64,000 nt of DNA from Nitrospiraceae bacterium (GCA_003599505.1 QZKO01000014.1:7774-71773), one strand, 5' to 3'; shown: positions 6,558 to 39,752, counted from the stretch's first letter. A program made the numbers and translations. The notes: generated from the letters alone by a model not told the origin.

Positions 6558-8227
6558 AGTTATTAAAATATCTTGAAAAAATAGATATAACTTGTTGTTG
6601 TCTGCTTATAAGCAGTATGATCTTTCCTCTAATGGGATTTGGTTTATATTTTAGAAACGAAGATGCACAATATGTGATTTGGCTGGATAAGGATCATAAT
6701 ATTTTTAATGCGTTTAATTTAAATGCTAACTATGCTTCTATAACATACAGGCCTGTTTCCGAATTAGGGATGCGAATCGTGTATAGTTTTTTTGGAAGCA
6801 ACCCTTTGGCCTTCCAGGTTGCCAGTGGAATATCATTTATAGCTGCAATCTTCTTTTTATATAAAATCGTGATGCTTTTATTTAATAGAACTACCGCGTT
6901 TTTGGTAATATTAACTTTTTATTTAGGTTTTTATAAAATCATTCACTTTCTTTACACGCCTATTCAGGGCTTTCAATATTCTTTTGACTTGTTTTTAGCT
7001 ACCGGTTCTATTTTTTATGCAATGAAAGGATTGAAAGACGGGAAATTTAATTATTACTATGCAATAAGTATTTTATTGATGATTTCCGCTATATTTTCTC
7101 ACCCGGTATGTTCGTTTTTCCTTCCTATAATAAACATAGTTCTTCTAATCATAAATTGGAGAAAATTGGAAAATATACATATTAACAAAAAAATACTGAT
7201 TGTTGCTTTTTTTATTACGCTATTACTTGCTACAAAAATAGTTACAAAACAGGGTGTTGATATATTTAATAAATCAATTGTTGATGCTATAACGTTTCTA
7301 CTAAATGGATATATAGGATATGGTAATATTTTTCTAAATAGTAGACTTAATTTAATTCTTATCCCTTTTCCCCTTGTTTATGGATTAACACACTTTATAA
7401 TTAAAAAATACTTTTTCAGTTCCAAAGGTCATTCCATTTTTATTTATTCTTCTATTGGTGCAATTATTGGATGTATAATAGCTAATATAGTTTCTAAAGA
7501 AATCGCTTTTATAATATTAAGCGTGCTTCTTCTTATTATTGCAACAACAGACAGATATAAGTTTTTCTTAACGGTTTGGTTCTTTAGTAGTCTATTGCCA
7601 TCTATTCTGAGTACAGAAGCAACAGGGGTTTATGCACGGCATTCAGCATTTGCATTAAGTTTTACTGTAGGAATTATATATGGAGAAATTATATCTGAAA
7701 TTCTAAGCTTGATTCAAAATAAATTCAGAAGAGCCGTTAACTTGTTTTCGTTAAACGCTATAGCGTTTTCTTTGACGTTATTTATTCTTTCAATAAGCAG
7801 CTTAGCCAAATTTAATATCTTGCACATTCCATTTGTTAGCAGCCAGTTAGAACAACTAAATTACGTTAAGGATATAAGCTGCAATTTTCAAGACGTGCTG
7901 ATTTTTTTGGCAGAGAAAATAAACAAAAATGAGCATGTTTATTTCCTTAAAGACTTTAAGCTGGATAAAGAAAATCTTTATACACAGAATCATGTGGAGC
8001 GGCTCCGGCCTGCAGGAATTAATCATTATCCTTCTTATCTTAAAATGCATAATAGAGATGATTTAATAGTAGAATCTGTCGATAACCTTAATCAAATTTA
8101 TGGCAATCAGAAGATAATAGTTGCAACAAACAGTTGGGAGGCAGAGTATTTGGAATCTCGTTATACACTTAACATATGGAAAGTATTTAGACGGGGAAAG
8201 GCTATTGCAAAGATATACAGATATTAA
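6554..8227 (+). CDS. Polytopic membrane protein, putative GT-C fold glycosyltransferase
   Basis: It has more than 10 hydrophobic segments and a first-loop acidic motif (RNEDAQYVIWLD) followed by YRPVSELGMR, reminiscent of ArnT/PMT-type GT-C enzymes. Its start overlaps the upstream stop (ATGA). Confidence 0.4.
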   Translation: MKLLKYLEKIDITCCCLLISSMIFPLMGFGLYFRNEDAQYVIWLDKDHNIFNAFNLNANYASITYRPVSELGMRIVYSFFGSNPLAFQVASGISFIAAIFFLYKIVMLLFNRTTAFLVILTFYLGFYKIIHFLYTPIQGFQYSFDLFLATGSIFYAMKGLKDGKFNYYYAISILLMISAIFSHPVCSFFLPIINIVLLIINWRKLENIHINKKILIVAFFITLLLATKIVTKQGVDIFNKSIVDAITFLLNGYIGYGNIFLNSRLNLILIPFPLVYGLTHFIIKKYFFSSKGHSIFIYSSIGAIIGCIIANIVSKEIAFIILSVLLLIIATTDRYKFFLTVWFFSSLLPSILSTEATGVYARHSAFALSFTVGIIYGEIISEILSLIQNKFRRAVNLFSLNAIAFSLTLFILSISSLAKFNILHIPFVSSQLEQLNYVKDISCNFQDVLIFLAEKINKNEHVYFLKDFKLDKENLYTQNHVERLRPAGINHYPSYLKMHNRDDLIVESVDNLNQIYGNQKIIVATNSWEAEYLESRYTLNIWKVFRRGKAIAKIYRY

Positions 8228-8323: not shown

Positions 8324-9331
8324 ATGCTAAAATACCCCAAAGAAATATGCATTATCCTTACATACAGGTGCAATGCAAAGTGCAATATGTGTGATGTATG
8401 GCATTATCCAACGAAAGCCGGTGAGGAAATTACTCCAACGCAACTTGAAAAACTTCCTTCAGACCTCAGGTTTATTAATATAACAGGTGGTGAACCATTC
8501 ATAAGACAGGATATTACTGATATTATAGATGTAATACGTCCTAAAACAAAGCGGATTGTAATCAGTAACAATGGTTTTTTTACCGGGCGTATCGTAAAGC
8601 TGTGTGAAAAATATCCTGATTTAGGGATAAGAATAAGTACTGAGGGGCTTCAAAAGACTAACGATTCAATCAGAGGGATACCTCATGGGTTTGACAGGAC
8701 TCTCAGAACCCTGTTGACATTGCGAAGAATGGGAATTAAGGATATTGGATTCGGCATGACCGTGCAGGATGAAAACTGCAAGGACTTGTTGCCTCTTTAT
8801 GAACTGTCAGATGCGCTCGGTTATGAATTTGCAACCGCAACGCTACATAATTCCCACTATTTCCATAAACTGGATAATAGGATAGATAATAAAGAGATGG
8901 TTTGCGGAGAGTTTGAAAAACTTATAACCGAGCTTTTAAAATCGAAATCAGTAAAAAAATGGTTCCGGGCCTATTTCAATTATGGATTGATGAATTATAT
9001 TTATGGGGGACAAAGATTCTTACCTTGCGAAATGGGAACAGAATCATGTTTTATAGACCCTTCAGGAGATGTATTAGCCTGCAATGGGATGGATGAAAAA
9101 ATGGCCATGGGTAATATCAGAGCGCAGTCATTTGAATCAATATGGAATAGCGAGCAGGCAAACAAGGTCCGTGAAATAGTCAGGTCATGTCAGAAGCAAT
9201 GCTGGATGGTCGGAAGCGCCGCCCCCGCCATTAAGAAGCATCCCTTGAAACCGCTTACCTGGGTCATCAGCAATAAACTCCGCCTTGTCTTTGGGAAAAA
9301 TCCTGACCTATGTATTCCTAACAGGAAATAA
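8324..9331 (+). CDS. Radical SAM enzyme with C-terminal SPASM/twitch Cys-rich domain
   Basis: YRCNAKCNMC provides the CX3CX2C [4Fe-4S] motif. NITGGEPF is the SAM-binding GGE motif. The C-terminus holds clustered Cys residues (CEMGTESCF...CNG...CQKQCW). It is paralogous to 23699..24799. Confidence 0.75.
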   Translation: MLKYPKEICIILTYRCNAKCNMCDVWHYPTKAGEEITPTQLEKLPSDLRFINITGGEPFIRQDITDIIDVIRPKTKRIVISNNGFFTGRIVKLCEKYPDLGIRISTEGLQKTNDSIRGIPHGFDRTLRTLLTLRRMGIKDIGFGMTVQDENCKDLLPLYELSDALGYEFATATLHNSHYFHKLDNRIDNKEMVCGEFEKLITELLKSKSVKKWFRAYFNYGLMNYIYGGQRFLPCEMGTESCFIDPSGDVLACNGMDEKMAMGNIRAQSFESIWNSEQANKVREIVRSCQKQCWMVGSAAPAIKKHPLKPLTWVISNKLRLVFGKNPDLCIPNRK

Positions 9332-9379: not shown

Positions 9380-10489
9380 ATGAAAATAGTGGTAACCGGT
9401 ACCAGAGGTTTTCCCGGTGTGCAAGGGGGAGTGGAAAAGCATTGTGAAAAATTGTATTCACATTTGATAAAGCATGGCTGTGATATTACCGTCTTTTCCA
9501 GGAAACCATATGTCACGTACCCTGATGAGAAATTTAATGGGATAACGTTAATTCCTCTCAGTTGCCCTCAAAACAAATTTCTGGAAGCTATTGTTCATAC
9601 TTTTAAAAGTGTATTGGAAGCAAGAAAATTGCATCCTGATATTCTGCATATCCATGCAGTTGGCCCGGCACTGATGACCCCTTTTGCCCGTGTTCTCGGT
9701 ATGAAGGTTGTGGTTACCAGTCATGGTCCTGATTACAAGAGAAAGAAATGGTCGTGGCCGGCAAAAATATTCCTGAGATGGAGCGAATGGGCGGGGATGA
9801 CTTTTGCAAGTGAAATTATAGCGATTGCCCAGGATATTTCAAATGATATAAGGAAAAAGTACAGGAGAAATCCTGCTGTTATACCAAACGGTGTGGATAT
9901 TCCTGCGCAGGTAACTACGAGTGAGGCTCTCAAAAAATATGGTCTTCAAGAAAAAAGATATATTCTTTCTGTAGGAAGGTTTGTCCCGGAAAAAGGATTT
10001 CACGACCTTATAGATGCATTCAATAACATGAAAGGAAATAACTGGAAACTGGTGATCGTCGGAGATGCTGATCATGAGGATAAATACAGCCGTGATCTGA
10101 AAGTAAAGGCAGGGAATAATGAGAATATCTTACTAACAGGTTTTTTGACAGGTCAGCCTTTACAGGAAATATACAGTCATGCCGGACTTTTTGTTCTGCC
10201 TTCATCTTATGAAGGGTTGCCCATTGTTTTACTCGAAGCTATGAGTTATGGGTTACCATGTATCGCCAGTGATATTCCCGCCAATAGAAACGTTGATTTG
10301 GGTGATGATAGATTTTTCAGGGCAGGGGACATAAGCATGCTCTCTCGAAAGATCGTTTATTTTATTCAAAGACCATGGGAAGATACCGATAAAAGACATC
10401 AGGTTAACATGATTGCTGAAAAATATAACTGGGAAAGTATTGCTGATGAGACTTTGAAGGTTTATAAGAAAGTGTTTAAAGTGAGTTAG
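9380..10489 (+). CDS. Glycosyltransferase family 4 (GT4)
   Basis: VGRFVPEKGFHDLIDAF and LPSSYEGLPIVLLEAMSYGLPCIASD give the GT4 EX7E motif. A GT-B N-terminal Rossmann half is present. Confidence 0.8.
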   Translation: MKIVVTGTRGFPGVQGGVEKHCEKLYSHLIKHGCDITVFSRKPYVTYPDEKFNGITLIPLSCPQNKFLEAIVHTFKSVLEARKLHPDILHIHAVGPALMTPFARVLGMKVVVTSHGPDYKRKKWSWPAKIFLRWSEWAGMTFASEIIAIAQDISNDIRKKYRRNPAVIPNGVDIPAQVTTSEALKKYGLQEKRYILSVGRFVPEKGFHDLIDAFNNMKGNNWKLVIVGDADHEDKYSRDLKVKAGNNENILLTGFLTGQPLQEIYSHAGLFVLPSSYEGLPIVLLEAMSYGLPCIASDIPANRNVDLGDDRFFRAGDISMLSRKIVYFIQRPWEDTDKRHQVNMIAEKYNWESIADETLKVYKKVFKVS

Positions 10490-10591: not shown

Positions 10592-12139
10592 TTACTCTAT
10601 CTCAAAATCATCTGTTATCTTATAAAAGCTATAAGGATAAATAATTTCATTTACATAACTGTCATCGGGAAGTAATTTAAAGTTGCCCTTAAAATAAAGA
10701 TTGAAAATAACTCGAAAAGAATTCACTGGTGTTATGGAAGGATATAAAATACTTTTATTAACCCCGGGCAGAAAATATGCATTTAATATGCTCATTTTCT
10801 GTTTTAACTCTATTTTGGTTGCGCGTTTGATGTTGTATTGATGTTTCTCCTGTACTAATTTCATAGGATAGGACCCCTCATCTGACTGTAAGATAATAAT
10901 TGGAACAATTTCAGAGGTTGACAGGAGTTTATCAATAAGTTCTTTAATTTTATGATTAATAAAAATTAATTGCTCCAGATAATTATAATTTTCATTACGC
11001 TTTTCGACTACCTCCTCTGTTAAGAAATTTCCGTTTCTATCAAAAACGTATGGAGTGTGAGGGACAAGTATATGGGCGAAAACAAACGTGGGCTCTTTAA
11101 TTTTCGGGATCTCGACGAGTTTGTTCAGTTTATACAGTGTCCTTTGCCAGTGCTCCATACGGGGATCATAGATGCCCCATGCGACTGATATAGGGTATAA
11201 AACTGTAGTTTGATACAACATCGTTGCAAAACGGGGAAAAATATAATAATTAATATTTAAATCTGCATATGGATTAAAGCTCGTCGGTCGCCAATAATCT
11301 CCAACATGCACATATTTATATCCTGCTGATTTCAGAAGGCGCAATACTTTGTAATCTCGCAACATGGCATAAAGCATTGTGAAATCCCGAGAATCCGTTC
11401 CCATCTCTTCCTTTAGATGAAATACATGCTCCATATTCAGGGACGATGAAAGGGAGGGGGCAGTCGTCATATAATTAGACCTGCTTTGATCCGCTACATA
11501 AAATCCTTTATCGGTTAAATAGTTGAGAAATTCATTGTTGTCATAACCATAAACTTCTTTGAGGCTGTCTGCCCTGCAATATCTATCGAGGATTATATAG
11601 TAAATATCCGGTTGTTTATCAGTTTTTGAAAACGTCAGTATATCTGTGTTTTCCTCTACACTATGTCTGCTATCATGACTAACATATCTCTCCTTGAACT
11701 TAAAAATAAATACATTAACAAAAGCCAATACGATCAATAAAACAGACATGGCATTAAGTAGATTTGTAAATCTTATTAAAGTTCTTCGAGATTTCCAGAC
11801 GAAAAAAACGATAATCGTAAATAATAGTACCCATGCTGACAGAAAATATCTATTTCTGATCATTGTACTGCCAAATGAATACGATTCTCTTATCCAGAAG
11901 AAAATGTGTCCGTAAGAGAAAAAAAATAAGAAAAAGAATGAGATTAGGATTCCAGATTTTCTTGTTTCTCTTAAGAAAAGATTTAAGAGTAAAAAAAAGA
12001 GAATCGCAAACAAAAGGATGACGGCTGCAGAAATAACCGGTACTTTTATCGATATTATTTCATTTATGTTGTGTGAATAGAGGAATAAAACGGGATATAG
12101 CGCAAACAAAAAGGGATGAATGATATAAGGCTTTTTCAT
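10592..12139 (-). CDS. Membrane-anchored sulfatase-fold phosphotransferase (LtaS/EptA-like; Thr replaces the formylglycine Cys)
   Basis: It has N-terminal TM helices. The C-terminal AlkP/sulfatase fold carries FAHILVPHTPYVFD and a metal-site-like ILDRY...TTAPSLSSSL in which the sulfatase C-x-P-x-R Cys/Arg are absent. It is paralogous to 62079..64000. Confidence 0.5.
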   Translation of the reverse strand: MKKPYIIHPFLFALYPVLFLYSHNINEIISIKVPVISAAVILLFAILFFLLLNLFLRETRKSGILISFFFLFFFSYGHIFFWIRESYSFGSTMIRNRYFLSAWVLLFTIIVFFVWKSRRTLIRFTNLLNAMSVLLIVLAFVNVFIFKFKERYVSHDSRHSVEENTDILTFSKTDKQPDIYYIILDRYCRADSLKEVYGYDNNEFLNYLTDKGFYVADQSRSNYMTTAPSLSSSLNMEHVFHLKEEMGTDSRDFTMLYAMLRDYKVLRLLKSAGYKYVHVGDYWRPTSFNPYADLNINYYIFPRFATMLYQTTVLYPISVAWGIYDPRMEHWQRTLYKLNKLVEIPKIKEPTFVFAHILVPHTPYVFDRNGNFLTEEVVEKRNENYNYLEQLIFINHKIKELIDKLLSTSEIVPIIILQSDEGSYPMKLVQEKHQYNIKRATKIELKQKMSILNAYFLPGVNKSILYPSITPVNSFRVIFNLYFKGNFKLLPDDSYVNEIIYPYSFYKITDDFEIE

Positions 12140-12146
12140 TAATATT

Positions 12147-13517
12147 TTATGTTTTTTGCATCAAATATAAAATTCTTTCTGAATCTCTTATCTCAATTAA
12201 CTTTAAGATTTTAAAATATTTCTTAAATTCTTTTTCAAAGGCAGGTTGTAAATAATCTGAGAAAATGTCTTTTCTTGTTGCTAAAAGTTTTTGAACTTGA
12301 GAGTCACTTTTGGGAATAAACTCAATAATCAGCATATTGCAGATTTTACTGAAAAAATCCGCTATTTTCTCCATAGGAAGATTGTTTGAAATAACAAGAT
12401 GATGGATTAAAGCAAGTGCCAGCACGACATCGGAGGGGCCGCGCTCCAGAAAAGACATTCTCTCTGTGTTCCCCCACCCTATATTAGAGCTTGGATTTGT
12501 CAGGTCTAATAATAGAGGTAAAATTTTTGTTTCCCCTCTTTCAGTACATCTAAGATAATTTATCTCGACCGCGGCAGGATCAATATCAAAAGAAATTGTT
12601 TGTATCCCTTTAGCACTTGCAATACTGCTAAATACGCCAATATTAGCGCCTAAATCCCATAAAAGGCCAGGGTGAACCTCATCTAACAAATCAGAAACAA
12701 CCGCTTTTTTATGGCTCAGTGCATCCGGCGGGTAATTTGTATCTTTATAATAATTGCCCCATTCAGTGCCAACGGGACGCCATTTTAATTTTTTGATAGC
12801 AGTTTCCAAATTATCAATAAGTCCAAGAAATGAAAGAAGATTCATCTTGCGGCTTCTTATATTTGTAGTCTTCCCTGAAAAATATTTCTGGCTTTTTGCA
12901 TGGAGATGGATATGTGAAAACAATGAGAATATAAAATGCGTATTAAATGGCAAAAGAGAACTTGCCAGGTCCAACGGAATTCCATCTATAAAAACTCTAA
13001 ATAGCTGGCTAAGTCTGACATCTCTGTAAACCATCAACGCTAAAGGAGCGAGAAAGTGTTGGCAGCACTGTCTGTATGCCACCCAAGGTTTTCCCTCCTC
13101 GTATGTTTCAAAAGAAAGTGTGTCGATAAAAATGGGTTTAGAGTCTTTAAATTGTATATTATAAGCGCTACAGTCTTTCAGGGACATTCCAAAGTCAAGT
13201 GCTTTTTTTTGAATTTCAAGAGTGGTTAAAGCAGCATCTTTCAATTGACTGAAACTCCATTCATATGGGTAAGATACAAAAGGAACAATTTCAGGCTTTA
13301 TTATTTTATACGCTAAATCAGATTTGGCAGCTTGCACATCAACTTCTATGTGGGGAATTAATAGTTCTGCTTTTACAAGAGAGTCATAAAGACCCGACTC
13401 CATAAGATGCTGATAATTGTTTTTATAATAACAGTTTACTTGTCGATAAAGATGCCCATCCTGCTGAAAAAGGAATCCGCTTGGATCTCGAAAAGACCCC
13501 GATATGGGATGGTTCAT
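12147..13517 (-). CDS. Two-domain protein: N-terminal kinase-like (APH-like) region plus C-terminal class I SAM-dependent methyltransferase domain
   Basis: The C-terminal LLWDLGANIGVFSSIASAKGIQTISFDID matches MT motif I plus the acidic loop. The N-terminal LKDCSAYNIQF...IDTLSFE resembles a kinase catalytic loop and DFG-like region. The kinase reading is weak. Confidence 0.4.
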   Translation of the reverse strand: MNHPISGSFRDPSGFLFQQDGHLYRQVNCYYKNNYQHLMESGLYDSLVKAELLIPHIEVDVQAAKSDLAYKIIKPEIVPFVSYPYEWSFSQLKDAALTTLEIQKKALDFGMSLKDCSAYNIQFKDSKPIFIDTLSFETYEEGKPWVAYRQCCQHFLAPLALMVYRDVRLSQLFRVFIDGIPLDLASSLLPFNTHFIFSLFSHIHLHAKSQKYFSGKTTNIRSRKMNLLSFLGLIDNLETAIKKLKWRPVGTEWGNYYKDTNYPPDALSHKKAVVSDLLDEVHPGLLWDLGANIGVFSSIASAKGIQTISFDIDPAAVEINYLRCTERGETKILPLLLDLTNPSSNIGWGNTERMSFLERGPSDVVLALALIHHLVISNNLPMEKIADFFSKICNMLIIEFIPKSDSQVQKLLATRKDIFSDYLQPAFEKEFKKYFKILKLIEIRDSERILYLMQKT

Positions 13518-13717
13518 GCCTTGGTTTCTTTTGAGAATATAGATTTAAAAAAATTTATGATCTTCTTCCAGAATAACTTGACCAAATAAAGTCCTGTGAC
13601 AGAAGCTGCAATAATCATTTGAATAATGTAACTGCCAGTCCCGGCATCAAGATAAGCATAACCATTTTGGGGACAAGTCAAAAGACATAATACAACTAAA
13701 ACGAATATAATTTTCAA
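13514..13717 (-). CDS. Small secreted/membrane mini-protein (signal peptide plus C-terminal TM and basic tail)
   Basis: It encodes 67 aa. MKIIFVLVVLCLLTCPQNGYA is signal-like. It is followed by a short motif, a hydrophobic helix and KLFWKK. It sits tightly between two operon genes, with a 4-nt overlap on one side and a 5-nt gap on the other. It could be spurious. Confidence 0.3.
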   Translation of the reverse strand: MKIIFVLVVLCLLTCPQNGYAYLDAGTGSYIIQMIIAASVTGLYLVKLFWKKIINFFKSIFSKETKA

Positions 13718-13722
13718 CCTAT

Positions 13723-15264
13723 TTATTTTCCTCCTGAAGAATGAATCCTGTCCTTTGTTTTCATAATATTATAACAGTAAATATCAACATTCGCAATTTC
13801 AGTTATATCCTTGTGAAGAGATTTAATTTCATCATGATTACTGTCAAGCCAAGCCTTTGCATAACCGTTTTTGTCTGCATACCATTCACGGCTGAGGATT
13901 AGCCAGAGACGCTTTTTATTCTCCGCCATTTCCTGAAGCACGCCTTCAATGTCCTTCTTATTGTCTGTCTGTGCGGATTTTAATGACTCGCAGACGATAT
14001 CCTCTGATCTGGAATATCTATTGAATGTTACATCGTCAACAACACATAGCAGCACATCGTCTGCAGATCTATGGCTTTTTATATATGATACAGCGCTGCG
14101 TATGTCAGGTTTTGAATATTTAACATCAGACTGATAGCTTGCATATGAGAAAGAGCAAAATCCGATGATCGCGGCTATTGCAACAAGGGGCAGGTATTTA
14201 CTGAGCTTCACTGATTTCAGGCATAAAAGCCAATCTATTCCTATAGAGACACACAAAAGAGATCCAAACAGTGCTGCACCGCTATATCTTACATTATAAG
14301 TTAACCGTGGGTTTAAGAGCGTTAATACGATTGCCCCGCTTATGGGCATGATTATGAGAAGAAGGAGAAGGATGAATTCTGCTCTATCCTTTCTTGTGGA
14401 CCATAGACCCAGAGTGACTAATGTGCTGTAAAGAATAAACAGCGGGAAGATTATGGAGATGTAAGGCGTTACTACTGTTAACGACGGGTTGATATGGAGT
14501 TCTCTTAAGGAAGGGCCGATACTAAACCCTGCAAAAAAAGAATAGAAGGTGTAGGGAAGAGCTATAAAATAATTTACAGGTTTTAGATAAGCTGTTCCCC
14601 TGTCTTTCAAAGATGTTAACTGGTGGATGATCCATGGCAGATAACAGATTACAATAACACTGAAAGCCGCGATCCATTTAAGGACCTGATGCTTGTATTT
14701 TTTAAAAAATATAATTAAATACAGAAATTGCACGAACATGATAAACACAAACATCTGCAATGTATAAAGCGCGGCGATAGAGCTTATTATAAAGCCTGAG
14801 TAGTTGGCAGGGCTTGGCTTATCAAGCGCTCTCAGGAAGTATAGCATAGATACCAGAATCAGCATCCAGAAAAGGGCGTACATCCTTGCATCTTGTGAAT
14901 ACCATATGTGGAATGGCGATATTGACAATAAGAATGCCGATATAAGGCCGGTCTTTTCATTAAATAATTTTTTCCCAAGTAAAAAAAATAAAGGAACACT
15001 CAATGATCCAAAAATGAATGGTACAAATCGTATCGCATAATCACTGTCAGGGAATAATTTAGATACAGCATAGACCAGGATCGCATTTGCCGGGGGAGTA
15101 TCGGGAAGACTTAATGACATGTCACCCAGAAATTGACGCTTAAATGCAGTCTCCTCAGCAACTTCATCATACCACAGTGACTGCCTGCTTATACCATATA
15201 CCCGTAACAGGACGGCAATCAAGAAGATAACGATAGATATGGAAATGACAATACGTCTTGACAT
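13723..15264 (-). CDS. GT-C fold glycosyltransferase of the ArnT/PMT (GT39/GT83-like) family
   Basis: The N-terminal TM helix is followed by the loop motif SLWYDEVAE, the DE motif of ArnT/PMT enzymes. It has at least 11 TM segments. It lies immediately downstream of a Dpm1/ArnC-like GT2. Confidence 0.65.
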   Translation of the reverse strand: MSRRIVISISIVIFLIAVLLRVYGISRQSLWYDEVAEETAFKRQFLGDMSLSLPDTPPANAILVYAVSKLFPDSDYAIRFVPFIFGSLSVPLFFLLGKKLFNEKTGLISAFLLSISPFHIWYSQDARMYALFWMLILVSMLYFLRALDKPSPANYSGFIISSIAALYTLQMFVFIMFVQFLYLIIFFKKYKHQVLKWIAAFSVIVICYLPWIIHQLTSLKDRGTAYLKPVNYFIALPYTFYSFFAGFSIGPSLRELHINPSLTVVTPYISIIFPLFILYSTLVTLGLWSTRKDRAEFILLLLLIIMPISGAIVLTLLNPRLTYNVRYSGAALFGSLLCVSIGIDWLLCLKSVKLSKYLPLVAIAAIIGFCSFSYASYQSDVKYSKPDIRSAVSYIKSHRSADDVLLCVVDDVTFNRYSRSEDIVCESLKSAQTDNKKDIEGVLQEMAENKKRLWLILSREWYADKNGYAKAWLDSNHDEIKSLHKDITEIANVDIYCYNIMKTKDRIHSSGGK

Positions 15265-15294
15265 CTCATTATTCAGAGCTACTTCTGAATCCTT

Positions 15295-16059
15295 TCACAG
15301 AAGACCAAACAATTTTTCAAAGCGCAATCTTATTACAGTGTAAATATATTTTTTCCCGCGTTTCAGATAATGCAATATGTTGCTGCCGGTCTTAGATTCC
15401 CCGCTTCGTCGAGGCATAGCCATATAGGGCAATTCACAAACACGATATTTTTTGCTCAGTACGCGAAAAATGAAGTCAATAAAATATTCTCCGTAATCGC
15501 CTCTTAATGGAATGGCTTTCAGAACCTCACGTTGAACTGCAATAAAACCGCTTGTGTAATCTGAGAATGTAGGATATAAAAAAAATCTTATGCCCCAATT
15601 TAACGATTTGCTTAAAATGAGCTGTATAAAACTTCCCTTGCCTCTGCGATCTTCACCCCCACCGATTATGTAACGGGAATTTACAACAACCTCAAATCCC
15701 TGCGAGATCATAAAAAGCAACTGGGGAATGCATTCGGGAGGGTGGGTAAAATCACAATCGAACCAAATTATTATATCATGGGATGCGGATGATATACCCT
15801 CTTTCAGTGATGCGGTAAGTCCATGATCTTTCATGCGGCGAATGACACGTATATCAGCGGCCTCACAGGTAGTATTTGATGCAATTTCCCATGTTTTGTC
15901 AGGAGAATTATCATCTACGACAATGACCTCAATTTTTTGTATTCCTGTATGCCGGATGGCATTTACTGTTGCATGGATTAGGTCCTCAATGTGGCCGGCT
16001 TCATTGAAGGTGGGCATTATGACAGATACTCCCGATATGGAAGAGGACAGTGTAACCAC
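15295..16059 (-). CDS. GT2 polyprenyl-phosphate glycosyltransferase (Dpm1/ArnC-like, soluble form)
   Basis: VIMPTFNEAGHIE...VIVVDDNSPDKT is GT-A DXD-type architecture (DD motif) typical of dolichyl/undecaprenyl-phosphate sugar synthases. Confidence 0.75.
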   Translation of the reverse strand: MVTLSSSISGVSVIMPTFNEAGHIEDLIHATVNAIRHTGIQKIEVIVVDDNSPDKTWEIASNTTCEAADIRVIRRMKDHGLTASLKEGISSASHDIIIWFDCDFTHPPECIPQLLFMISQGFEVVVNSRYIIGGGEDRRGKGSFIQLILSKSLNWGIRFFLYPTFSDYTSGFIAVQREVLKAIPLRGDYGEYFIDFIFRVLSKKYRVCELPYMAMPRRSGESKTGSNILHYLKRGKKYIYTVIRLRFEKLFGLL

Positions 16060-16138
16060 TATTGTTTAATGACCTTAATTAATATGATTTGATTTGCTAT
16101 AAATTCTTTCATTGACTTTAGGCTAAAAAGGAGATACT

Positions 16139-17248
16139 TCACTTTGGCATTATTTCTTTAATAGCTGCTGCGACTTTTTGTATATCTCTTTCTGATAGAG
16201 TTAGGCCTGATGGCAGATACAGTCCCTGCTTTGAGATCCTCTCAGTAACCGGGTAGGACTCATTACTGAAAAAACCCATCTTGCACAGAGCTGGTTGTTC
16301 GTGCATTCCGAGGAAGTAAGGTCTTGTAGCTATTTCTTTTTCACTTAGCTGCCTTGCGAAACTTTCAGCAGTAAATCCTGTTGTCTCACTAATTACTATT
16401 CCATACATCCAATAAACATTTTTTGCCCATTTTTTTTCAACCGGTTTTTGAATCCATTTGATGTCCGTTAGATGTTTATTATAAGACGCTCCATTTCTTC
16501 TTTTGATTCCGACAAATTCATCTATTCTTTCCATTTGGGCGGTGCCAACTGCGGCCTGAAGATTAGTTATGCGGTAGTTTCCTCCTAATTCTTCATGATA
16601 AAATCTTCTTCCTTCCTTAAAGCAAAGATTTCTGTGCAGTCTCGCCCTCTCAGAAAGTCTGTTATCATTAGTTACGACCATACCTCCTTCACCTGTTGTA
16701 ATGATCTTATTGGCATAAAAACTGAAACAATTTATATGTCCAATGCCTCCACATTTCCTGCCCTTATATTCAGCTCCGTGTACTTCCGCGGCATCCTCAA
16801 TGATATATAACCCGTATTTTTCTGCAAGATATATAATAGGATCCATATCGACCGGGTGACCATACATATGGACTGGCATTATTGCTTTCGTTTTTTTGGT
16901 AATTTTATCCTTTACCTGATTGATGTCCATACACCATGTGTCAGCCTCTACATCAACAAGCACCGGAACCCCACCTCGTCTTATGACTGCGAGTGCACAG
17001 GAGATAATAGTGAATGCAGGCATAATAACTTCTTCTCCCGGCTTTAGATCTATTGCGGACATCGCAACTTCAAGCGCTACGGTACCATTGCAAACCGCTA
17101 TGCCATGCTGCAGGCCAACATAACTTGCAACCATCTCTTCAAAGCTTCGTACAAAAGGGCCTTCAGACGAGATCCACCCTGTATCAATGCATTCCATTAA
17201 ATATTTTTTTTCATTCCCGTTCAAAAGAGGTTCATTAACTGGAATCAT
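16139..17248 (-). CDS. DegT/DnrJ/EryC1/StrS-family PLP-dependent sugar aminotransferase (ArnB-like)
   Basis: GIAVCNGTVALEVA and SFYANKIITTGEGGMV carry the PLP-lysine motif and are diagnostic of the family. Confidence 0.85.
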   Translation of the reverse strand: MIPVNEPLLNGNEKKYLMECIDTGWISSEGPFVRSFEEMVASYVGLQHGIAVCNGTVALEVAMSAIDLKPGEEVIMPAFTIISCALAVIRRGGVPVLVDVEADTWCMDINQVKDKITKKTKAIMPVHMYGHPVDMDPIIYLAEKYGLYIIEDAAEVHGAEYKGRKCGGIGHINCFSFYANKIITTGEGGMVVTNDNRLSERARLHRNLCFKEGRRFYHEELGGNYRITNLQAAVGTAQMERIDEFVGIKRRNGASYNKHLTDIKWIQKPVEKKWAKNVYWMYGIVISETTGFTAESFARQLSEKEIATRPYFLGMHEQPALCKMGFFSNESYPVTERISKQGLYLPSGLTLSERDIQKVAAAIKEIMPK

Positions 17249-17685
17249 GTTTTTTCCTCAAAGTGTGTTTTATCTATCTCACCTGCATAAGGCCCCTGTT
17301 TTATTTCTATCATATCAACATCTTCAATAACCTCAAACCCATGACCACCGCCTCCGAGCAAAATAACGTCTCCTGCATCGAGAAAATGTGTTGAATAATA
17401 AGACTGATTGCTGCGATACAAATCAACTTTTAATCTTCCTCTCTTAATTACTAATACTTCTTGTGTAAAGCGTATCTCGCGTTTAACAGCATTATGGGCG
17501 TGAGGTTTAATTTTTCTTCCTGCTTTATGATGCATATATGCGAGTTGTTGAGAAAAATCATCTGGTGTGAAAAACTTGACTCCTTCGGTTGAAAAATTAT
17601 TTCTTATAATTATTGCTAAAATTTCATTATCATCTTTAATTGTTTCTATATATTCCATAGTCTTTCCTATCACTACTATTGGCAA
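17245..17685 (-). CDS. Cupin-domain protein (possible sugar isomerase/epimerase)
   Basis: It has the two-motif cupin signature (PHAHNAVKRE ... GGGGHGFEV). The 4-nt ATGA overlap with the aminotransferase indicates translational coupling. Confidence 0.45.
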   Translation of the reverse strand: MPIVVIGKTMEYIETIKDDNEILAIIIRNNFSTEGVKFFTPDDFSQQLAYMHHKAGRKIKPHAHNAVKREIRFTQEVLVIKRGRLKVDLYRSNQSYYSTHFLDAGDVILLGGGGHGFEVIEDVDMIEIKQGPYAGEIDKTHFEEKT

Positions 17686-17841
17686 CTCTTTTCTTTTGGT
17701 CGATTGTGAATTATCCCTGATCCAGGACGTATCAATAGAAATTGTAACTTATTGTAATAGTTTATATTCTGAACATCAATTAAATCAACTTTTATCCTCG
17801 TATATATGAAAAAGGACACTTCTATTTTGGCTTGGCAGAAA

Positions 17842-18492
17842 TTATTTCTCACCAAAGATGTAATCTGACTGAGTTGATTCGAGCGACAAACTGAGATCAT
17901 GAACAAATTCATTTCCCATAATTATTGCTTCTTCTATTTCATGTTCATTTGCAGGAATATCAATACGCACCATTAAACCAACACGTTTTGCATTAAAGAG
18001 AGAGAAATATAGTTGTTTAATCTTATTCTCAATCCACTCATTGGCGATGTTTTTATCAATAATTACCCAGTAAAAGCTCAGGAAACTGTTTCCACCATTT
18101 TGTGTAAATAACGCGTGTGCTTTAAAGGTGCGGTTAGAGACTGTAAACTCGGTATCTTCGAGTTCATTTATCATATATCCCGAGTTTGTGAAGCAAACTC
18201 GGGGGTTGTGTAAATTTCCGGCATCCAGAATGATGAAAAGCAGGCTTTTACCGTCCTGATTTATATATTGATACCCAAGCGCGTCATTGATAAAATTATA
18301 TGTGGATTCCTCATAATTAATATTTAAAGCCCCTGTGACGTCTTTTCCATTCCATCCTGGAAAGGTAAGAGGAATTTTAAGTTCGGAGATGAATTTTGTG
18401 CCGGTGTATTTTGTTTCAGGGATAATATAACTTGATAAAACAGTAGATATCAGCAAGAAAATCACTATAAAAGTTTTTCTTTTATATGTCAT
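17842..18492 (-). CDS. EpsI-family exosortase-associated protein
   Basis: It has a single N-terminal TM and a soluble domain of about 190 aa. It is positioned immediately downstream of the exosortase, which is the canonical EpsH/EpsI arrangement. Confidence 0.5.
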   Translation of the reverse strand: MTYKRKTFIVIFLLISTVLSSYIIPETKYTGTKFISELKIPLTFPGWNGKDVTGALNINYEESTYNFINDALGYQYINQDGKSLLFIILDAGNLHNPRVCFTNSGYMINELEDTEFTVSNRTFKAHALFTQNGGNSFLSFYWVIIDKNIANEWIENKIKQLYFSLFNAKRVGLMVRIDIPANEHEIEEAIIMGNEFVHDLSLSLESTQSDYIFGEK

Positions 18493-18506
18493 GGAAAATT
18501 AACTCG

Positions 18507-19319
18507 TTAAGTCAATTTGTTCATTAATGATTCTATTCCCAACAGTCCGGACAGAGTAATAATAAAAATTACGATTCCGCTGAAGTTATGAAAAAAGCCC
18601 TGTCCGGCTTCTTCCCCGAAATAGAATGTTATGAGGCATAAAGTTATGACACGAATCAGATTACCAAGCAATGACAGAGGAACGATACAGACGGCAAGGG
18701 CAGATTTCTTTAAAATAGATCCGTTCATAATATAAACATAAACCAGCACCAGGGAAAACATCGTAATCAGAGAACGAAATCCGCTGCAGGGCGCTCCCAT
18801 GAATATTGTAGTGTAACCTATAGTTAATTCGAGCCCCGATCTCGTAATAGGATAATTCAGCAGCGCCAGTATCGATTCTGTCGCGACCGATATAGCGTGG
18901 CGCATGGGTAATGTGATGCTATCCAGAATTCCAAACGGCGGCGGTATTAACAATAGGAGATATAAGATAGGAAAAGATAGTTCTTTTGCCATATCATTTC
19001 CATAAAGATATCCTGTTAAACCGAATAAAAAAGGTATTATGGAAATTATTTGGAAGAAAAAGTAACCTTGACGCAGACCCCAAAGATGCATCGTGAGTCC
19101 CGTTAATAACAGGAAGAGATTGAGAGCATTATTGTAATGACGATCATTTTTATTAACGATTTCTTTCAGTCTCAGCCGTTTTCGCCAGACAAGCCAGATA
19201 GAAAGGGGTAAAATAAAGTAAGCATGTGTGTAATCAATAAAATCCCAGCGCGTTTTGTAAAGGTCGAAGAATTTCGGTATATAAAGAACAAGTGCCAGTG
19301 TCCAGATTAAATAAGTCAA
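18507..19319 (-). CDS. Exosortase (Xrt/EpsH family) polytopic membrane transpeptidase
   Basis: It has about 8 TM segments. A conserved-looking Cys/Arg region, GAPCSGFRSL, is present. It sits adjacent to an EpsI-like gene. Confidence 0.6.
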   Translation of the reverse strand: MTYLIWTLALVLYIPKFFDLYKTRWDFIDYTHAYFILPLSIWLVWRKRLRLKEIVNKNDRHYNNALNLFLLLTGLTMHLWGLRQGYFFFQIISIIPFLFGLTGYLYGNDMAKELSFPILYLLLLIPPPFGILDSITLPMRHAISVATESILALLNYPITRSGLELTIGYTTIFMGAPCSGFRSLITMFSLVLVYVYIMNGSILKKSALAVCIVPLSLLGNLIRVITLCLITFYFGEEAGQGFFHNFSGIVIFIITLSGLLGIESLMNKLT

Positions 19320-19506: not shown

Positions 19507-20898
19507 ATGAAAGTACTTCTAATAAATCCTTTAACCCTGGAAGACAGTATGGTGAATATCACTCCCAATCTTGGCTTGGGATATCTGGCAACTTCTCTGA
19601 GAAACAACGGGTTTGAAGTGGAAATATGGGATGGTGTCAAGAAGAACATGACGAAACGGGGACTTGAAGAGAGGTTGAAGAAACGCGATTACGATGTTGC
19701 CGGTTTTCAGGTATATACCCGGAGCGTGAAGGAAACTCAAGAAGGACTTGAGAAAGTTAAGGCGCTTGATTCCAGGATCGTTACAGTAGTAGGTGGGCCG
19801 CATCCTTCAGGTGACCCGGAAGGCTCTCTGACTCATCTTAAAACTGATTACGCTTTTCGGGGAGAAGCTGAAATAGGTTTATCCCAATTGTTAAAAAAAA
19901 TTACCGGAAAGGTAAATGAACCATTTGAAAATATCAATAATTTAATCTGGAAAAGCAATGGGAAAATTATATGTAATCCGCTGCAGCCTATTGAAAATCT
20001 GGATGTGGTAGGCATTCCGGCTTGGGATATGATTAACCCTAATGACTATCCCTACGCGCCGATTGGAGCTTTTTCAAAAAAAATGCCTTTAACGAGTATT
20101 TCCACAACGCGTGGTTGTCCCTATCACTGCACTTTTTGCGCGAACAACACGATTATGGGCAGGAAGGTAAGGGCGAGAAGCACAGAAATTGTTTTGGCAG
20201 AAATGGACTTATTGTATAACAAGTATGGAGTTAGAGAATTTCAGATTATTGATGATAATTTTACATCCAAAAAAGCCCTTACTCTGGGGGTGTGCGAAGG
20301 CATTATTAACAGAGGGTGGGATATAGGCCTTTCATTTCCGAACGGGGTGAGACTAAGTACTCTTGATGAAGAAATTCTGCATCTGCTTGAAAAGGCCGGC
20401 TGCTACTCTTTGGGGCTTGGTATAGAATCAGGTTCTCCAAGGACTTTAAAGAATATGAAAAAAGCTCAGTCAGTTGATGAGATAAAAGAAAAAGTTAATC
20501 TAATCCATAATGTTACCAGGATCAGGACCACAGGCTTTTTTATCATCGGCTATCCAACAGAAGAAAAAGAAGACATTTTGCAGACGATCAACCTGTCTAA
20601 GGAACTTCCCATAGACAGGGCGCAGTTTACTATATGCCTTCCAGTTCCCGGAAGCGAAATGACAGAGCAAATGATAAAAGCCGGAAAGCTGAAAGATGTG
20701 GATTTCAGTGACATATCTTTTCAGAATATTGTCCATATACCTGAAAAGATGACATTAAAAGAACTGAGGCGATACCGGATGAAAGCGTATATGGAATTCT
20801 ACCTCAGATTCAGGATAATCTTCGGCTTATTATCAGAAATCAAATCAATTGAACATATGAAATTTATATTCCGAAGAGTAATGAAGTTGTTTTCATAG
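19507..20898 (+). CDS. B12-binding-domain radical SAM enzyme (class B), paralog 1
   Basis: The N-terminal Rossmann-like cobalamin-binding domain begins MKVLLINP. TTRGCPYHCTFC is the CX3CX2C motif. It is paralogous to 43151..44548 and 54107..55534. Confidence 0.8.
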   Translation: MKVLLINPLTLEDSMVNITPNLGLGYLATSLRNNGFEVEIWDGVKKNMTKRGLEERLKKRDYDVAGFQVYTRSVKETQEGLEKVKALDSRIVTVVGGPHPSGDPEGSLTHLKTDYAFRGEAEIGLSQLLKKITGKVNEPFENINNLIWKSNGKIICNPLQPIENLDVVGIPAWDMINPNDYPYAPIGAFSKKMPLTSISTTRGCPYHCTFCANNTIMGRKVRARSTEIVLAEMDLLYNKYGVREFQIIDDNFTSKKALTLGVCEGIINRGWDIGLSFPNGVRLSTLDEEILHLLEKAGCYSLGLGIESGSPRTLKNMKKAQSVDEIKEKVNLIHNVTRIRTTGFFIIGYPTEEKEDILQTINLSKELPIDRAQFTICLPVPGSEMTEQMIKAGKLKDVDFSDISFQNIVHIPEKMTLKELRRYRMKAYMEFYLRFRIIFGLLSEIKSIEHMKFIFRRVMKLFS

Positions 20899-20997: not shown

Positions 20998-22275
20998 ATG
21001 AACTTGAAACCACTGACAGTTTTACATATAAATAAGCTTCATTACATATTTGGAGGAGCGGATGTAATTTATTTCAGGACGGCCGAAATTCTTGAGAAAA
21101 ACGGCCATAGCTCAGTTTTTTTCGCAATGCGCCACCCGGATAATCTGCCTTGTCACACTGCAGAGTATTTCATGCCTTTGATCGACACTGGCAAGAGATA
21201 TGTAAGTGACTTCGTAAAAGCGTCCTGCAGAAATATATATTCCTTTAAAGCGAGGAAATGCATTTCCAGAATATTAGACAAATATCATATCGACATCGTA
21301 CACATGCATGATATCCACCGCCAGATGTCTCCCTCTATACTTCATGAAATCAAAAAGAGGGAAATCCCTGTGGTGATGACTCTCCATAATTACAAAATGA
21401 TATGCCCTTCTTTTCTTATGATGGCTCATGGAAAGCCGTGCGAGGCGTGTGATCAGGGAAAGTATTTTAATGCCGTTAAGCTGAAGTGCGTTAAGGGGTC
21501 GTTTTTCAGGAGCGCTCTGCTTGCCATTGAGTTATATATGCATCACAAAATTCTTGATGCATATAAAAACGTTAATGTCTTTATTGCTCCGAGTATTTTT
21601 TTAAAGAATAAGCACGAGGAAATGGGATTTCATAAGAATATAGTACATCTTCCGTACCCTCTTGATGTTAAGGGGTTTGATAAAGTCAACCCGGAGGAGA
21701 TTAAAGAAAAAACCGGTGGGCAGCTTACTTTTGTATATTTTGGAAGACTTGAACCTGAGAAAGGGCTTTTTACACTTTTTGAGTCGATTAAAAATATTTC
21801 CTACAATGAAGCAGAGAGCCGGGTAGTATTTAAGATTATTGGTGAAGGTGCAATAAAAGATGAACTGCACGAAATAGCGCTGCGAAACGGGATGCACAAT
21901 GTTGAATTTCTCGGATACTTAACAGGGGAAGATCTTTTTACTGAAATTAGAAAAGCCGATGTCGTGATAATCCCTTCAGAGTGGTATGAAAATTATCCGG
22001 TTTCAGTAATGGAGGCATTTGCTTTGGGTAAACCTGTAATTGGCGCAAGAATCGGAGGAATTCCGGAAATGGTCAAGGATAATGCGACCGGTTTAACCTT
22101 TGAATCCGGCGATCCTTCAGATTTAGGTGAAAAGATTACATACGTCATAAAGAATCCTGGTAAAGCCGCTCTCTGGGGAAGAAATGCACGGGAGTTTATA
22201 GAAAGGGAAGTAAATCCTGAAAAGCATTATCGGCAATTAATGAAAATTTATAATATGGCTATGTCCCACAGATGA
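20998..22275 (+). CDS. Glycosyltransferase family 4 (GT4), paralog C of the 510/1814 pair
   Basis: EWYENYPVSVMEAFALGKPVIGARIGGIPEMV, DIVHMHDIHRQMSPS and CPSFLMMAHGKPCEAC parallel the conserved blocks of the tandem GT4s. Confidence 0.8.
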   Translation: MNLKPLTVLHINKLHYIFGGADVIYFRTAEILEKNGHSSVFFAMRHPDNLPCHTAEYFMPLIDTGKRYVSDFVKASCRNIYSFKARKCISRILDKYHIDIVHMHDIHRQMSPSILHEIKKREIPVVMTLHNYKMICPSFLMMAHGKPCEACDQGKYFNAVKLKCVKGSFFRSALLAIELYMHHKILDAYKNVNVFIAPSIFLKNKHEEMGFHKNIVHLPYPLDVKGFDKVNPEEIKEKTGGQLTFVYFGRLEPEKGLFTLFESIKNISYNEAESRVVFKIIGEGAIKDELHEIALRNGMHNVEFLGYLTGEDLFTEIRKADVVIIPSEWYENYPVSVMEAFALGKPVIGARIGGIPEMVKDNATGLTFESGDPSDLGEKITYVIKNPGKAALWGRNAREFIEREVNPEKHYRQLMKIYNMAMSHR

Positions 22276-27159: not shown

Positions 27160-28131
27160 ATGAAAAAAGAAACAAGTAAGCTTGAAGGAAGTAACGTGCT
27201 CGTAACAGGCGGGTGTGGTTTCATAGGGTCACATTTGATAAGAAGACTAATCGACTTGCACGTCGGCAGTATTACGGTAATTGATAGTTTGAAGTATGGC
27301 GATAAAGCAAATATAGGCAAAGAGTCTGAGAATATTATAGTAATAAAATATACAATTGATAATAAAAACGATGACGTTCTTTACGAGGCTCTTCATGGAA
27401 TCGACTATTTATTCCACTTAGCTGCAGAGAAGCACAATCAATCTATCAATAACCCTACAGATGTGATAAACAGCAATATAAACGGGACGTTCAGGCTCTA
27501 TGAAGCTGCTGCCAGGAATAGAGTCAGGAAAGTGGTTTATGCATCATCTCTTTATGCCTATGGTCGTATGTCTGTTCCCGATATGAACGAATCGGAATTG
27601 CCGGCGCCGAAAACAATCTATGGAATTTCCAAATTGGCAGGGGAACTCTTCCTTGCTCACTACTTACAGAAAAATGACCTGAAATATAACGTGTTAAGAT
27701 ATTTTTTTACTTATGGCCCTAAACAATTCAGCGGGACGGGATATAAATCTGTTATCGTGAAAAATTTCGAAAGAATTTTAAGAAATGAAAACCCGATAAT
27801 ATTTGGCGATGGGAAACAGGTATTGGACTACATCTATATCGATGATGTCATAAGCGCCACCATTAAGGCAATGGAGTCGGATTGTTATGGTGAAGTATTT
27901 AACGTTGGGTCATCTATTCCCTCTTCAATAGATCAAGTTACTGACGTGATGCTCAGAGTCAGCGGAAAGTCACTTGATAAACTATATGACCCGCCTGATG
28001 AGACAAAAGATACATACAGAGTAGCCGACATTTCAAAAATCAAAAAAATATTAAACATTCAGCCCACTGTATCACTTGAAGAAGGACTGAGCAAAACATA
28101 TGAGTGGATACAACAGAGAGGGAATGTATGA
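27160..28131 (+). CDS. NAD-dependent epimerase/dehydratase (UDP-sugar 4-epimerase / UXS-like extended SDR)
   Basis: VLVTGGCGFIGSHLIRRLI and YGISK are present. It has no TDE triad, so it is unlikely to be a 4,6-dehydratase. Its codon usage is native and AT-rich. Confidence 0.8.
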   Translation: MKKETSKLEGSNVLVTGGCGFIGSHLIRRLIDLHVGSITVIDSLKYGDKANIGKESENIIVIKYTIDNKNDDVLYEALHGIDYLFHLAAEKHNQSINNPTDVINSNINGTFRLYEAAARNRVRKVVYASSLYAYGRMSVPDMNESELPAPKTIYGISKLAGELFLAHYLQKNDLKYNVLRYFFTYGPKQFSGTGYKSVIVKNFERILRNENPIIFGDGKQVLDYIYIDDVISATIKAMESDCYGEVFNVGSSIPSSIDQVTDVMLRVSGKSLDKLYDPPDETKDTYRVADISKIKKILNIQPTVSLEEGLSKTYEWIQQRGNV

Positions 28132-33717: not shown

Positions 33718-33748
33718 ATGATTGGAAATAGAATGTTTTTAAAATATG

Positions 33749-35287: not shown

Positions 35288-35288
35288 A

Positions 35289-36038: not shown

Positions 36039-36190
36039 TGAGCACTATGATCTTATCAGACAATGATTCTATAGATACATTGATTTTTGCTTAATCATAT
36101 AAGCATGACGGTAGAAAACGAATTGACGATGTCAACGGTTGTTTATATTTAAACCATTATTTTTAGTATCACTCATTGTCTCTATAGAAA

Positions 36191-37300: not shown

Positions 37301-37303
37301 TCG

Positions 37304-39738: not shown

Positions 39739-39752
39739 CTTTATCCGGAAAT

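Follow-up and report, generated by a model that had tools for sequence, protein, structure and literature searches.

Why would genes for making and transferring an amino sugar lie directly behind the genes of a protein-sorting system? The question is raised by a 64,000-nucleotide stretch of DNA from a Nitrospiraceae bacterium (GCA_003599505.1, QZKO01000014.1:7774-71773), which was analysed whole and is called the window below. In it, an exosortase gene (xrt) and its partner epsI are followed on the same strand by genes for a cupin, a DegT-family aminotransferase, a GT2 glycosyltransferase and a membrane glycosyltransferase of the GT-C fold, and then by a trio of genes ending in an EptA-like phosphotransferase gene. 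From the sequence, it had been postulated that the aminotransferase, GT2 and GT-C follow the ArnB-ArnC-ArnT logic and that the acceptor of the sugar could be PEP-CTERM proteins or an associated exopolysaccharide (EPS) instead of lipid A. The answer that we favor, with a probability of roughly 0.55, is that the cassette carries out a lipid-carrier-dependent, periplasmic decoration of the polysaccharide of the surrounding gene island, either EPS or lipopolysaccharide (LPS), and that it has been joined to the EptA-like trio in a variable slot behind xrt-epsI.

Open reading frame (ORF) and family searches give nine co-directional ORFs, all on the minus strand, from 19319 to 10592:

18507-19319, minus strand: exosortase, 270 amino acids (PF09721, 2.3e-54)
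17842-18492, minus strand: EpsI, exosortase-associated periplasmic protein, 216 amino acids, one predicted N-terminal transmembrane helix (PF11984, 2.1e-14)
17245-17685, minus strand: small cupin, weak WbuC-cupin match (2e-5), overlapping the DegT gene by 4 bp
16139-17248, minus strand: DegT-family pyridoxal phosphate (PLP) aminotransferase, 369 amino acids (PF01041, 6.6e-114)
15295-16059, minus strand: short soluble GT2 of the polyprenyl-phosphate glycosyltransferase type, 254 amino acids (PF00535, 1.1e-33)
13723-15264, minus strand: GT-C fold membrane glycosyltransferase, 513 amino acids (PMT_2, 5.8e-13)
13514-13717, minus strand: mini-ORF, 67 amino acids, signal-like N-terminus, one predicted transmembrane helix, motif Y-L-D-A-G-T-G-S; first gene of the trio
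12147-13517, minus strand: p456, soluble protein of 456 amino acids with a weak class-I S-adenosylmethionine (SAM) methyltransferase signature in its C-terminal half; second gene of the trio
10592-12139, minus strand: p515, EptA/LtaS-type membrane phosphotransferase-like protein, 515 amino acids; third gene of the trio

The gaps between these genes, in the order xrt to p515, are 14, 156, -4, 79, 30, 5, -4 and 7 bp; with these short gaps and the family matches, the gene order and shared strand that had been described are borne out. No terminator-like site was found between the nine genes, a single weak promoter-like match lies in the 156-bp gap between epsI and the cupin gene, and promoter-like matches overall are not above shuffled expectation. 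Co-transcription of the string is plausible. The arrangement is best explained as three units placed end to end: xrt-epsI; cupin-DegT-GT2-GT-C; and mini-ORF-p456-p515.

The cassette enzymes and their sugar donor

The GT-C enzyme is 100% identical to a protein (C4526_02075) of a Nitrospiraceae metagenome-assembled genome. It has about 10-11 transmembrane helices and an acidic W-x-D-E loop after the first of them, and it ends in a periplasmic alpha/beta domain of some 130 amino acids. The loop, which reads SLWYDEVAEE, carries the WYDE motif that had been pointed out, and W31, D33 and E34 hardly vary among 31 orthologues; the protein has both the GT-C fold and the acidic motif in the first periplasmic loop. 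PMT_2 (PF13231) is the only Pfam family detected in it. The Pfam signature of the GT39 protein mannosyltransferases (PMTs), that is, PF02366 together with MIR domains, was not found, and a sequence search of the PDB returned no match. Orthology with ArnT was rejected, since the alignment of the GT-C family with Escherichia coli ArnT has an hhalign probability of 0.56% and no NCBIfam model of ArnT matches. The earlier view that the acceptor is not lipid A has held to this extent: modification of lipid A by a true ArnT is unlikely.

The DegT protein finds its best PDB matches in the GDP-perosamine synthases 3bn1 and 3dr4 (302 bits), compared with 164 bits for ArnB. It is 30% identical to E. coli ArnB, with the PLP lysine aligned (FSFYANK and FSFHAIK), and lies below every NCBIfam equivalog cutoff, including those of the LegC family (331 bits; cutoff, 420) and of ArnB (PRK11658, 207.5 bits; cutoff, 631). 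Its predicted activity is the transamination, at C4, of a nucleoside diphosphate (NDP)-linked, probably GDP-linked, 4-keto-6-deoxyhexose. With 302 bits to perosamine synthase against 164 to ArnB, the sugar is probably not the 4-amino-4-deoxy-L-arabinose (Ara4N) that an Arn-type pathway would supply.

The GT2, in which no transmembrane helix is predicted, is a polyprenyl-phosphate GT2 of the class that includes dolichol-phosphate mannose synthase (DPMS), GtrB and ArnC. Its best PDB match is the Dol-P-Man synthase of Pyrococcus furiosus, 5mlz (8.5e-34, 120 bits), and the nearest NCBIfam models are those of ArnC, PgfS, AglJ and a Dol-P-hexose transferase. The identity with E. coli ArnC is 27% and confined to the catalytic domain, and the score against PRK10714 is 66.9 bits, with a cutoff of 529. 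Thus, of the label "Dpm1/ArnC-like", the first half is apt, but the protein is not an ArnC orthologue (64 bits in the PDB search). The same can be said of the pathway as a whole: the three enzyme types of the original prediction, aminotransferase, lipid-phosphate GT2 and GT-C, are all present, but none is an orthologue of its Arn counterpart.

The cupin, whose true start is more likely the ATG at 17658 (giving 137 amino acids), has no useful Pfam match up to an E value of 10 and no PDB sequence match. Its family comprises 2381 representative clusters, and because some members are fused to short-chain dehydrogenase/reductase (SDR) epimerases, a GT2 or a methyltransferase, it is probably an enzyme of a sugar pathway that modifies a nucleotide sugar. 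An orthologue (217 bits) adjoins the DegT gene in one of the compared loci, L001.

Two independent hints, the resemblance of the DegT protein to GDP-perosamine synthase and that of the GT2 to Dol-P-Man synthase, suggest a donor of the GDP/manno type. In addition, a GDP-mannose-4,6-dehydratase-like gene (PF16363, 2e-53) stands with DegT and GT2 genes beside the GT-C orthologue of locus L088, which also points to a GDP-linked sugar of the perosamine type. From these similarities, we infer that the donor is probably a GDP-linked amino-6-deoxyhexose of this type.

In the model that we favor, xrt-epsI would be the conserved pair that, within a large surface-glycan island, sorts PEP-CTERM proteins. 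The DegT enzyme, aided by the cupin and by a 4,6-dehydratase encoded elsewhere, would make an NDP-4-amino-4,6-dideoxyhexose that probably resembles perosamine and is linked to GDP; the DPMS-like GT2, a soluble enzyme, would load this amino sugar onto polyprenyl phosphate; a flippase would flip the lipid-linked sugar; and the GT-C enzyme would then transfer the sugar at the periplasmic face. The trio would probably add a phospho-substituent, possibly methylated, outside the cytoplasm, and both accessory cassettes would occupy a hypervariable slot downstream of epsI. The most likely target would be the EPS or LPS that the neighbouring Wzy, GT4 and GT9 genes produce for export. Such a post-export decoration would be of the Gtr, Arn, PpgS-Rv3779 or BcsG kind and would diversify the matrix that holds the PEP-CTERM proteins.

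Linkage to the exosortase genes and the choice of acceptor

Exosortase genes are known to occur among EPS genes (PMC1569441). The exosortase of the window passes the NCBIfam models TIGR02602 (129 bits; cutoff, 105.6) and TIGR04178 (62 bits; cutoff, 23) and falls below the cutoffs of the curated subtypes, the best being XrtB (196; cutoff, 275) and XrtV (186; cutoff, 313). When 20 homologues are aligned, C178, N220-x-x-R223 and H244-x-x-x-G248 are invariant; these are the Cys, N-x-x-R and H-x-x-x-G exosortase motifs defined in PMC1569441. EpsI likewise scores 66.8 bits against the EpsI type B model, under the cutoff of 220. More than 680 homologues of this exosortase type occur in the Nitrospirota, Omnitrophota and Brocadiales, and in nearly all of 77 related loci, epsI comes after xrt. 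The pair looks like an uncurated subtype that forms a large, conserved clade flanked by classical PEP-CTERM genes. In one Nitrospirae locus (L011), about 1.9 kb (10777-12638) is inserted between the two normally adjacent genes.

Eleven loci that hold a GT-C orthologue (41-54% identity) with enough flanking sequence are informative about the linkage. An Xrt-EpsI pair lies within 10 kb of the GT-C gene in eight of them (the window, L001, L004, L008, L088, L090, L102 and L103) and is absent from this distance in three (L002, L104 and L105); six further GT-C orthologues are on contigs equal in size to those of an exosortase homologue. The clustering of GT-C with Xrt-EpsI exceeds chance. Seen from the other side, a GT-C gene is found in one of the 77 species-level loci of the present exosortase type (L008), and the other 76 are without the module, which weakens the case for a functional coupling to the exosortase. 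The link is therefore asymmetric, meaningful from the GT-C side and not from the exosortase side, and the physical coupling that had been proposed stands in the first sense but not in the second. A literature search found no paper that joins an exosortase with ArnT, GT-C, PMT_2 or perosamine.

The proximity in 8 of the 11 loci, with the GT-C gene behind epsI on the same strand in seven, is what would be expected if the GT-C enzyme were a protein O- (or N-) glycosyltransferase that places the amino sugar on PEP-CTERM proteins during their processing by the exosortase, such proteins being one of the two acceptors named in the original prediction. The combination of a DPMS-like GT2 with a PMT_2 GT-C also resembles Ppm1/Pmt, the protein O-mannosylation pair of Actinobacteria, and NCBIfam curates an archaeosortase-A-associated oligosaccharyltransferase family (TIGR04154). 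Furthermore, related exosortases have possible substrates nearby, where 92-97 candidate ORFs of the classical PEP-CTERM kind were found in 33 of the 77 loci. These candidates are rich in Ser plus Thr (17.0% versus 11.6%) and in Asn (7.7% versus 3.9%), an enrichment that agrees with Haft et al. 2006 (PMC1569441). However, the 76 loci without a GT-C gene indicate that sorting does not need the enzyme, and three of the 11 GT-C loci have no exosortase within 10 kb. Two regex scans of all six frames of the 64 kb gave no credible PEP-CTERM tail, and no PEP-CTERM gene was found beside any GT-C orthologue. The GT-C enzyme has no MIR domain, no other known peptide-binding domain and no PF02366, and several further GT-C genes of the island are unlinked to xrt. 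Taken together, these results weaken the case for PEP-CTERM proteins as the acceptor, and we regard their glycosylation by this enzyme as unlikely.

A different role for the sugar would follow from the speculation of Veith et al. 2020 (PMC7468200) that an exosortase conjugates proteins to a sugar bearing an amino group. The sugar installed by the GT-C enzyme would then be part of an acceptor or anchor glycan to which the exosortase joins the cleaved C-terminus of PEP-CTERM proteins, much as the type IX secretion sortase does with its substrates. The persistent position of the GT-C gene behind epsI would suit such a role, and in the window and L001, there is no N-acyl or N-methyl transferase gene by the DegT gene, so a free amine is possible. 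Yet the exosortase-linked L102 has a GNAT gene between those for DegT and GT2, and L008 and L103 have methyltransferase genes, which means that a free amine is not conserved. Nearly all loci of this exosortase type are, moreover, without the cassette, and exosortase acceptors have no experimental precedent. We consider this role very improbable.

The composition of the GT-C loci bears directly on the decoration of a polysaccharide. Genes for DegT, GT2 and GT-C occur together in 10 of the 11 informative loci, so that the linkage of the donor-making genes with GT-C is conserved. The tailoring genes around them vary: a GNAT gene in L002, L102 and L104; a methyltransferase gene in L004, L008 and L105; a cupin gene in the window, L001 and L103; and an SDR gene among others that differ between loci. 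A constant trio of enzymes with shifting tailoring genes is the pattern typical of variable glycan-decoration cassettes. In locus L010, epsI directly abuts core genes (radical-SAM/SPASM, glycoside hydrolase (GH)-like, Wzy and GT4), so the block from the cupin gene to p515 has been inserted behind epsI, in a slot whose content varies.

Several observations nevertheless weigh against polysaccharide decoration as we have formulated it. No dedicated flippase family (GtrA, MATE, SMR or similar) was detected in the operon. The annotation of the window contains no GDP-mannose 4,6-dehydratase; consequently, the GDP-perosamine proposal rests on the DegT and GT2 similarities together with the gene in L088. 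In addition, in seven of the eight exosortase-linked loci, the GT-C gene comes downstream of epsI in the same orientation, while the sugar genes have been rearranged or exchanged. That this place is kept despite the shuffling is a hint that the bond with Xrt/EpsI goes beyond co-residence in one island. Finally, the loci compared come from related Nitrospirota, so their counts are not independent events.

The GT-C family could be imagined as a dedicated accessory of exosortase-EpsI in some Nitrospirota, one that draws on an amino-6-deoxyhexose linked to polyprenyl phosphate and glycosylates PEP-CTERM cargo or builds a sugar acceptor for the exosortase. We judge this broader proposal to be unlikely. 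If it were true, sorting by exosortases would for the first time be tied to bacterial glycosylation by a concrete biochemical link. As a family that appears repeatedly behind xrt-epsI, the GT-C also offers a defined gene for probing questions of exosortase attachment and PEP-CTERM glycosylation.

The EptA-like trio and the surrounding island

The last three genes of the string recur in the same order in two other loci (window, 10592-13717; L099, 5296-8548; L100, 5266-8545). Because the same gene set is found in L099 and L100, the trio is a portable, independently mobile unit, separate from the GT-C cassette. The mini-ORF, which had been listed among the genes of the operon, is a genuine gene with conserved counterparts in L099 (68 bits) and L100 (34 bits), both of which lie immediately upstream of a p456 homologue, and the small transmembrane proteins of the three loci share the motif Y-[ILV]-D-[PA]-G-T-G-S. 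A Pfam search of the mini-ORF yielded no useful match up to an E value of 10. The p456 homologues are in turn directly upstream of p515 homologues and are strikingly similar (673-707 bits, 65-70% identity). The predicted methyltransferase thus exists as a 456-codon ORF with a weak signature, but the functional call depends entirely on sub-threshold matches (Pfam, E values of 0.023 and 0.045; UbiG in the PDB sequence search, E value of 0.35, or 0.13 with a profile).

An LtaS-like gene had also been placed within 12147-19319. Such a gene, p515, is present, but it lies outside that interval, at 10592-12139, and its fold is nearest to EptA and MCR-1. The protein itself has no Pfam match (PF00884 was not detected) and no PDB sequence match. 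Its homologues number more than 5000; among the matches listed, about 40% carry PF00884 and some are named as members of the lipoteichoic acid (LTA) synthase family. Those in L099 and L100 score 486-567 bits. Topology prediction and an AlphaFold2 model (mean predicted local distance difference test score, 87.4) give four to five N-terminal transmembrane helices and an extracytoplasmic domain of the alkaline phosphatase fold, and the top Foldseek matches of the model are full-length EptA (5fgn), EptC and MCR-1. D185, T226/S229, H356, H361 and D420/E421 are conserved and are candidate residues of a metal/nucleophile site.

In enterobacteria, both Ara4N and phosphoethanolamine are added to lipid A. 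An amino-sugar GT2/GT-C cassette in one co-directional string with a protein that Foldseek likens to EptA and MCR-1 might therefore be an analogue of arn plus eptA that lowers surface charge by adding an amino sugar and a phospho-substituent to lipid A or the LPS core, and the island does hold a gene of the Wzy_C/O-antigen ligase family and a GT9 heptosyltransferase-like gene. What speaks against this is, first, that the GT-C is not specifically related to ArnT in sequence (the hhalign probability of 0.56%) and that DegT and GT2 fall far under the ArnB and ArnC cutoffs. Furthermore, when the operon and all window ORFs of 110 amino acids or more were annotated with Pfam and NCBIfam, neither ArnA, ArnD nor ArnE/F came up, nor did any formyltransferase, any polysaccharide deacetylase or any flippase of the SMR type. 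An EPS-type context is also seen for the p515 trio: in L100, it comes directly after an EpsI gene, together with genes for Wzx and a pyruvyl transferase. The cassette, moreover, is patchily distributed among close relatives. We therefore think modification of lipid A or core quite unlikely. In the same L100 locus, the EpsI-family gene (4277-5014) has no exosortase gene visible upstream and is followed by the trio and a Wzx-like flippase gene; an adhesin-like gene of 1708 codons lies on the opposite strand.

The whole 64-kb window is a surface-glycan island, with a GC content of about 31-47%. Several GT4 and GT2 genes lie in it, along with single Wzy_C family, GH-like and GT9-like genes. An MBOAT/AlgX pair, three B12-radical-SAM genes and two radical-SAM/SPASM genes are also present, as are two DegT aminotransferases, a set of NDP-hexose 2,3-dehydratase and FdtA genes, and up to six GT-C-like membrane proteins. 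Among these is at least one more set of aminotransferase, ArnC-like GT2 and GT-C genes, the second and larger one, far from xrt (32476-42026, minus strand). This set and other genes of interest for sugar transfer are as follows:

41064-42026, minus strand: ArnC/PgfS-like full-length GT2 (160 bits to ArnC), second set
36191-37300, minus strand: PseC-like DegT, second set
33749-35332, minus strand: PMT_2 GT-C, second set
32476-33717, minus strand: GT87 GT-C, second set
32476-42026, minus strand: other members of the second set, namely two methyltransferases, FdtA, NDP-hexose 2,3-dehydratase and a GFO/IDH oxidoreductase
42284, at a distance from xrt: PpgS-like GT2
44611-46170 and 55827-57710, minus strand: GT-C-like polytopic proteins with sub-threshold PMT_2 matches (E values of 0.013 and 0.35)
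30307-32328 and 6554-8227: large polytopic proteins without a family match above threshold, the latter of 557 amino acids

In L004, orthologues of the DegT, methyltransferase and GT2 of the second set adjoin the orthologue of the GT-C enzyme at 13723-15264. This enzyme might have been a recent paralogue of the second PMT_2 GT-C (33749), an idea that was rejected on comparison of the two (BLASTP E value of 0.89). The weak matches at 44611-46170 and 55827-57710 suggest that these proteins are further divergent GT-C enzymes, and for the 557-residue protein, a role as the missing flippase or as a polymerase is conceivable.

The constant companions of this exosortase type are a radical-SAM/SPASM gene (8324-9331), a GT4 gene (9380-10489), a B12-binding radical-SAM gene (19507-20898) and another GT4 gene (20998-22275). 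Orthologues of these four, at about 290-930 bits, are found near the exosortase type across phyla (in many of L004-L066), and they are far more constant beside xrt-epsI than the amino-sugar cassette is. Elsewhere in the island, a plus-strand gene (28104-30305) encodes a 733-residue fusion of unusual architecture, with an N-terminal GT2 of the polyprenyl-phosphate type and a C-terminal adenylate-forming ligase like PaaK or F390 synthetase. The MBOAT gene and its AlgX-like SGNH partner (46616-49222, plus strand) are arranged as in alginate O-acetylation (AlgI/AlgX), which implies O-acetylation of an exported polysaccharide.

If polysaccharide decoration is the right explanation of the cassette, the locus would exemplify the periplasmic decoration of a surface glycan with an amino sugar that resembles perosamine and is borne by polyprenyl phosphate; to our knowledge, such a donor has not been described previously. 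It would also show how Nitrospirota diversify their matrix, by the exchange of cassettes at a single slot within a conserved EPS locus.

Comparison with known systems

The enzyme logic of the cassette is already well known; its location behind exosortase genes is unusual. Three-component periplasmic glycan modification is widespread (PMC11127046), and among the nearest known systems are GtrA/B/C of O-antigen glucosylation, CsbB/GtcA/YfhO, and the PPPRS-MATE-GT136 system of Citrobacter youngae (PMC11127046). As in these, a cytoplasmic enzyme would load a single sugar on polyprenyl phosphate for transfer, after export, by a GT-C with a C-terminal periplasmic domain, and the genes form a cluster within a polysaccharide locus, their presence varying between strains. 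The present system differs in that no recognisable flippase gene accompanies it, the predicted donor is an amino-6-deoxyhexose, and the GT-C belongs to an uncharacterised PMT_2 family whose preferred place is directly behind xrt-epsI. GtrB and ArnC, furthermore, have C-terminal transmembrane helices that the present GT2 lacks.

With the Arn pathway, the cassette shares the order of the chemistry, from a DegT-family aminotransferase through an undecaprenyl-phosphate GT2 to a GT-C at the periplasmic face, as well as a nearby EptA-like gene. A true Arn system was rejected all the same: the enzymes are far under the cutoffs (ArnB, 207 against 631; ArnC, 67 against 529) with no ArnT match, and ArnA, ArnD and ArnE/F are absent from the operon and the window ORFs searched. 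DegT is instead perosamine-synthase-like and the GT2 DPMS-like, and the context is one of EPS and exosortase genes.

The p515 protein resembles the EptA, MCR-1, BcsG and LtaS transferases in its N-terminal transmembrane helices and extracytoplasmic sulfatase-fold domain, with full-length EptA and MCR-1 as its top structural matches. It departs from them in having no Pfam or PDB sequence match of its own and in always standing alongside a transmembrane protein of 67-114 amino acids and the highly conserved p456.

The first unit corresponds to the EpsH-EpsI/PEP-CTERM system (PMC1569441): the gene for an exosortase that bears the Cys/Arg/His motifs precedes epsI amid polysaccharide genes, and relatives of the exosortase are flanked by classical PEP-CTERM genes. 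The differences are that the present exosortase is under every curated Xrt subtype cutoff, that the 64-kb window has no PEP-CTERM gene, and that a GT-C cassette has been inserted directly 3' of epsI, an arrangement that this exosortase type seldom shows.

Lastly, there are the actinobacterial systems. The mycobacterial pair PpgS (Rv3631) and Rv3779 adds galactosamine to arabinogalactan. In this pair and in Ppm1/Pmt, as in the cassette described here, a short GT2 without a membrane anchor of its own makes a polyprenyl-phosphate (amino)sugar, and a PMT_2/GT-C enzyme transfers the sugar to an envelope polymer or protein outside the membrane. The similarity to PpgS is very weak (NF058614, 28.6 bits; cutoff, 370), however, the host is a diderm of the Nitrospirota, and the donor would probably arise by transamination of a 4-keto-6-deoxy NDP-sugar and not from UDP-GalNAc. 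The GT39 PMTs differ from the present GT-C in possessing PF02366 and MIR domains, but the two have in common the Asp-Glu motif of the first loop.

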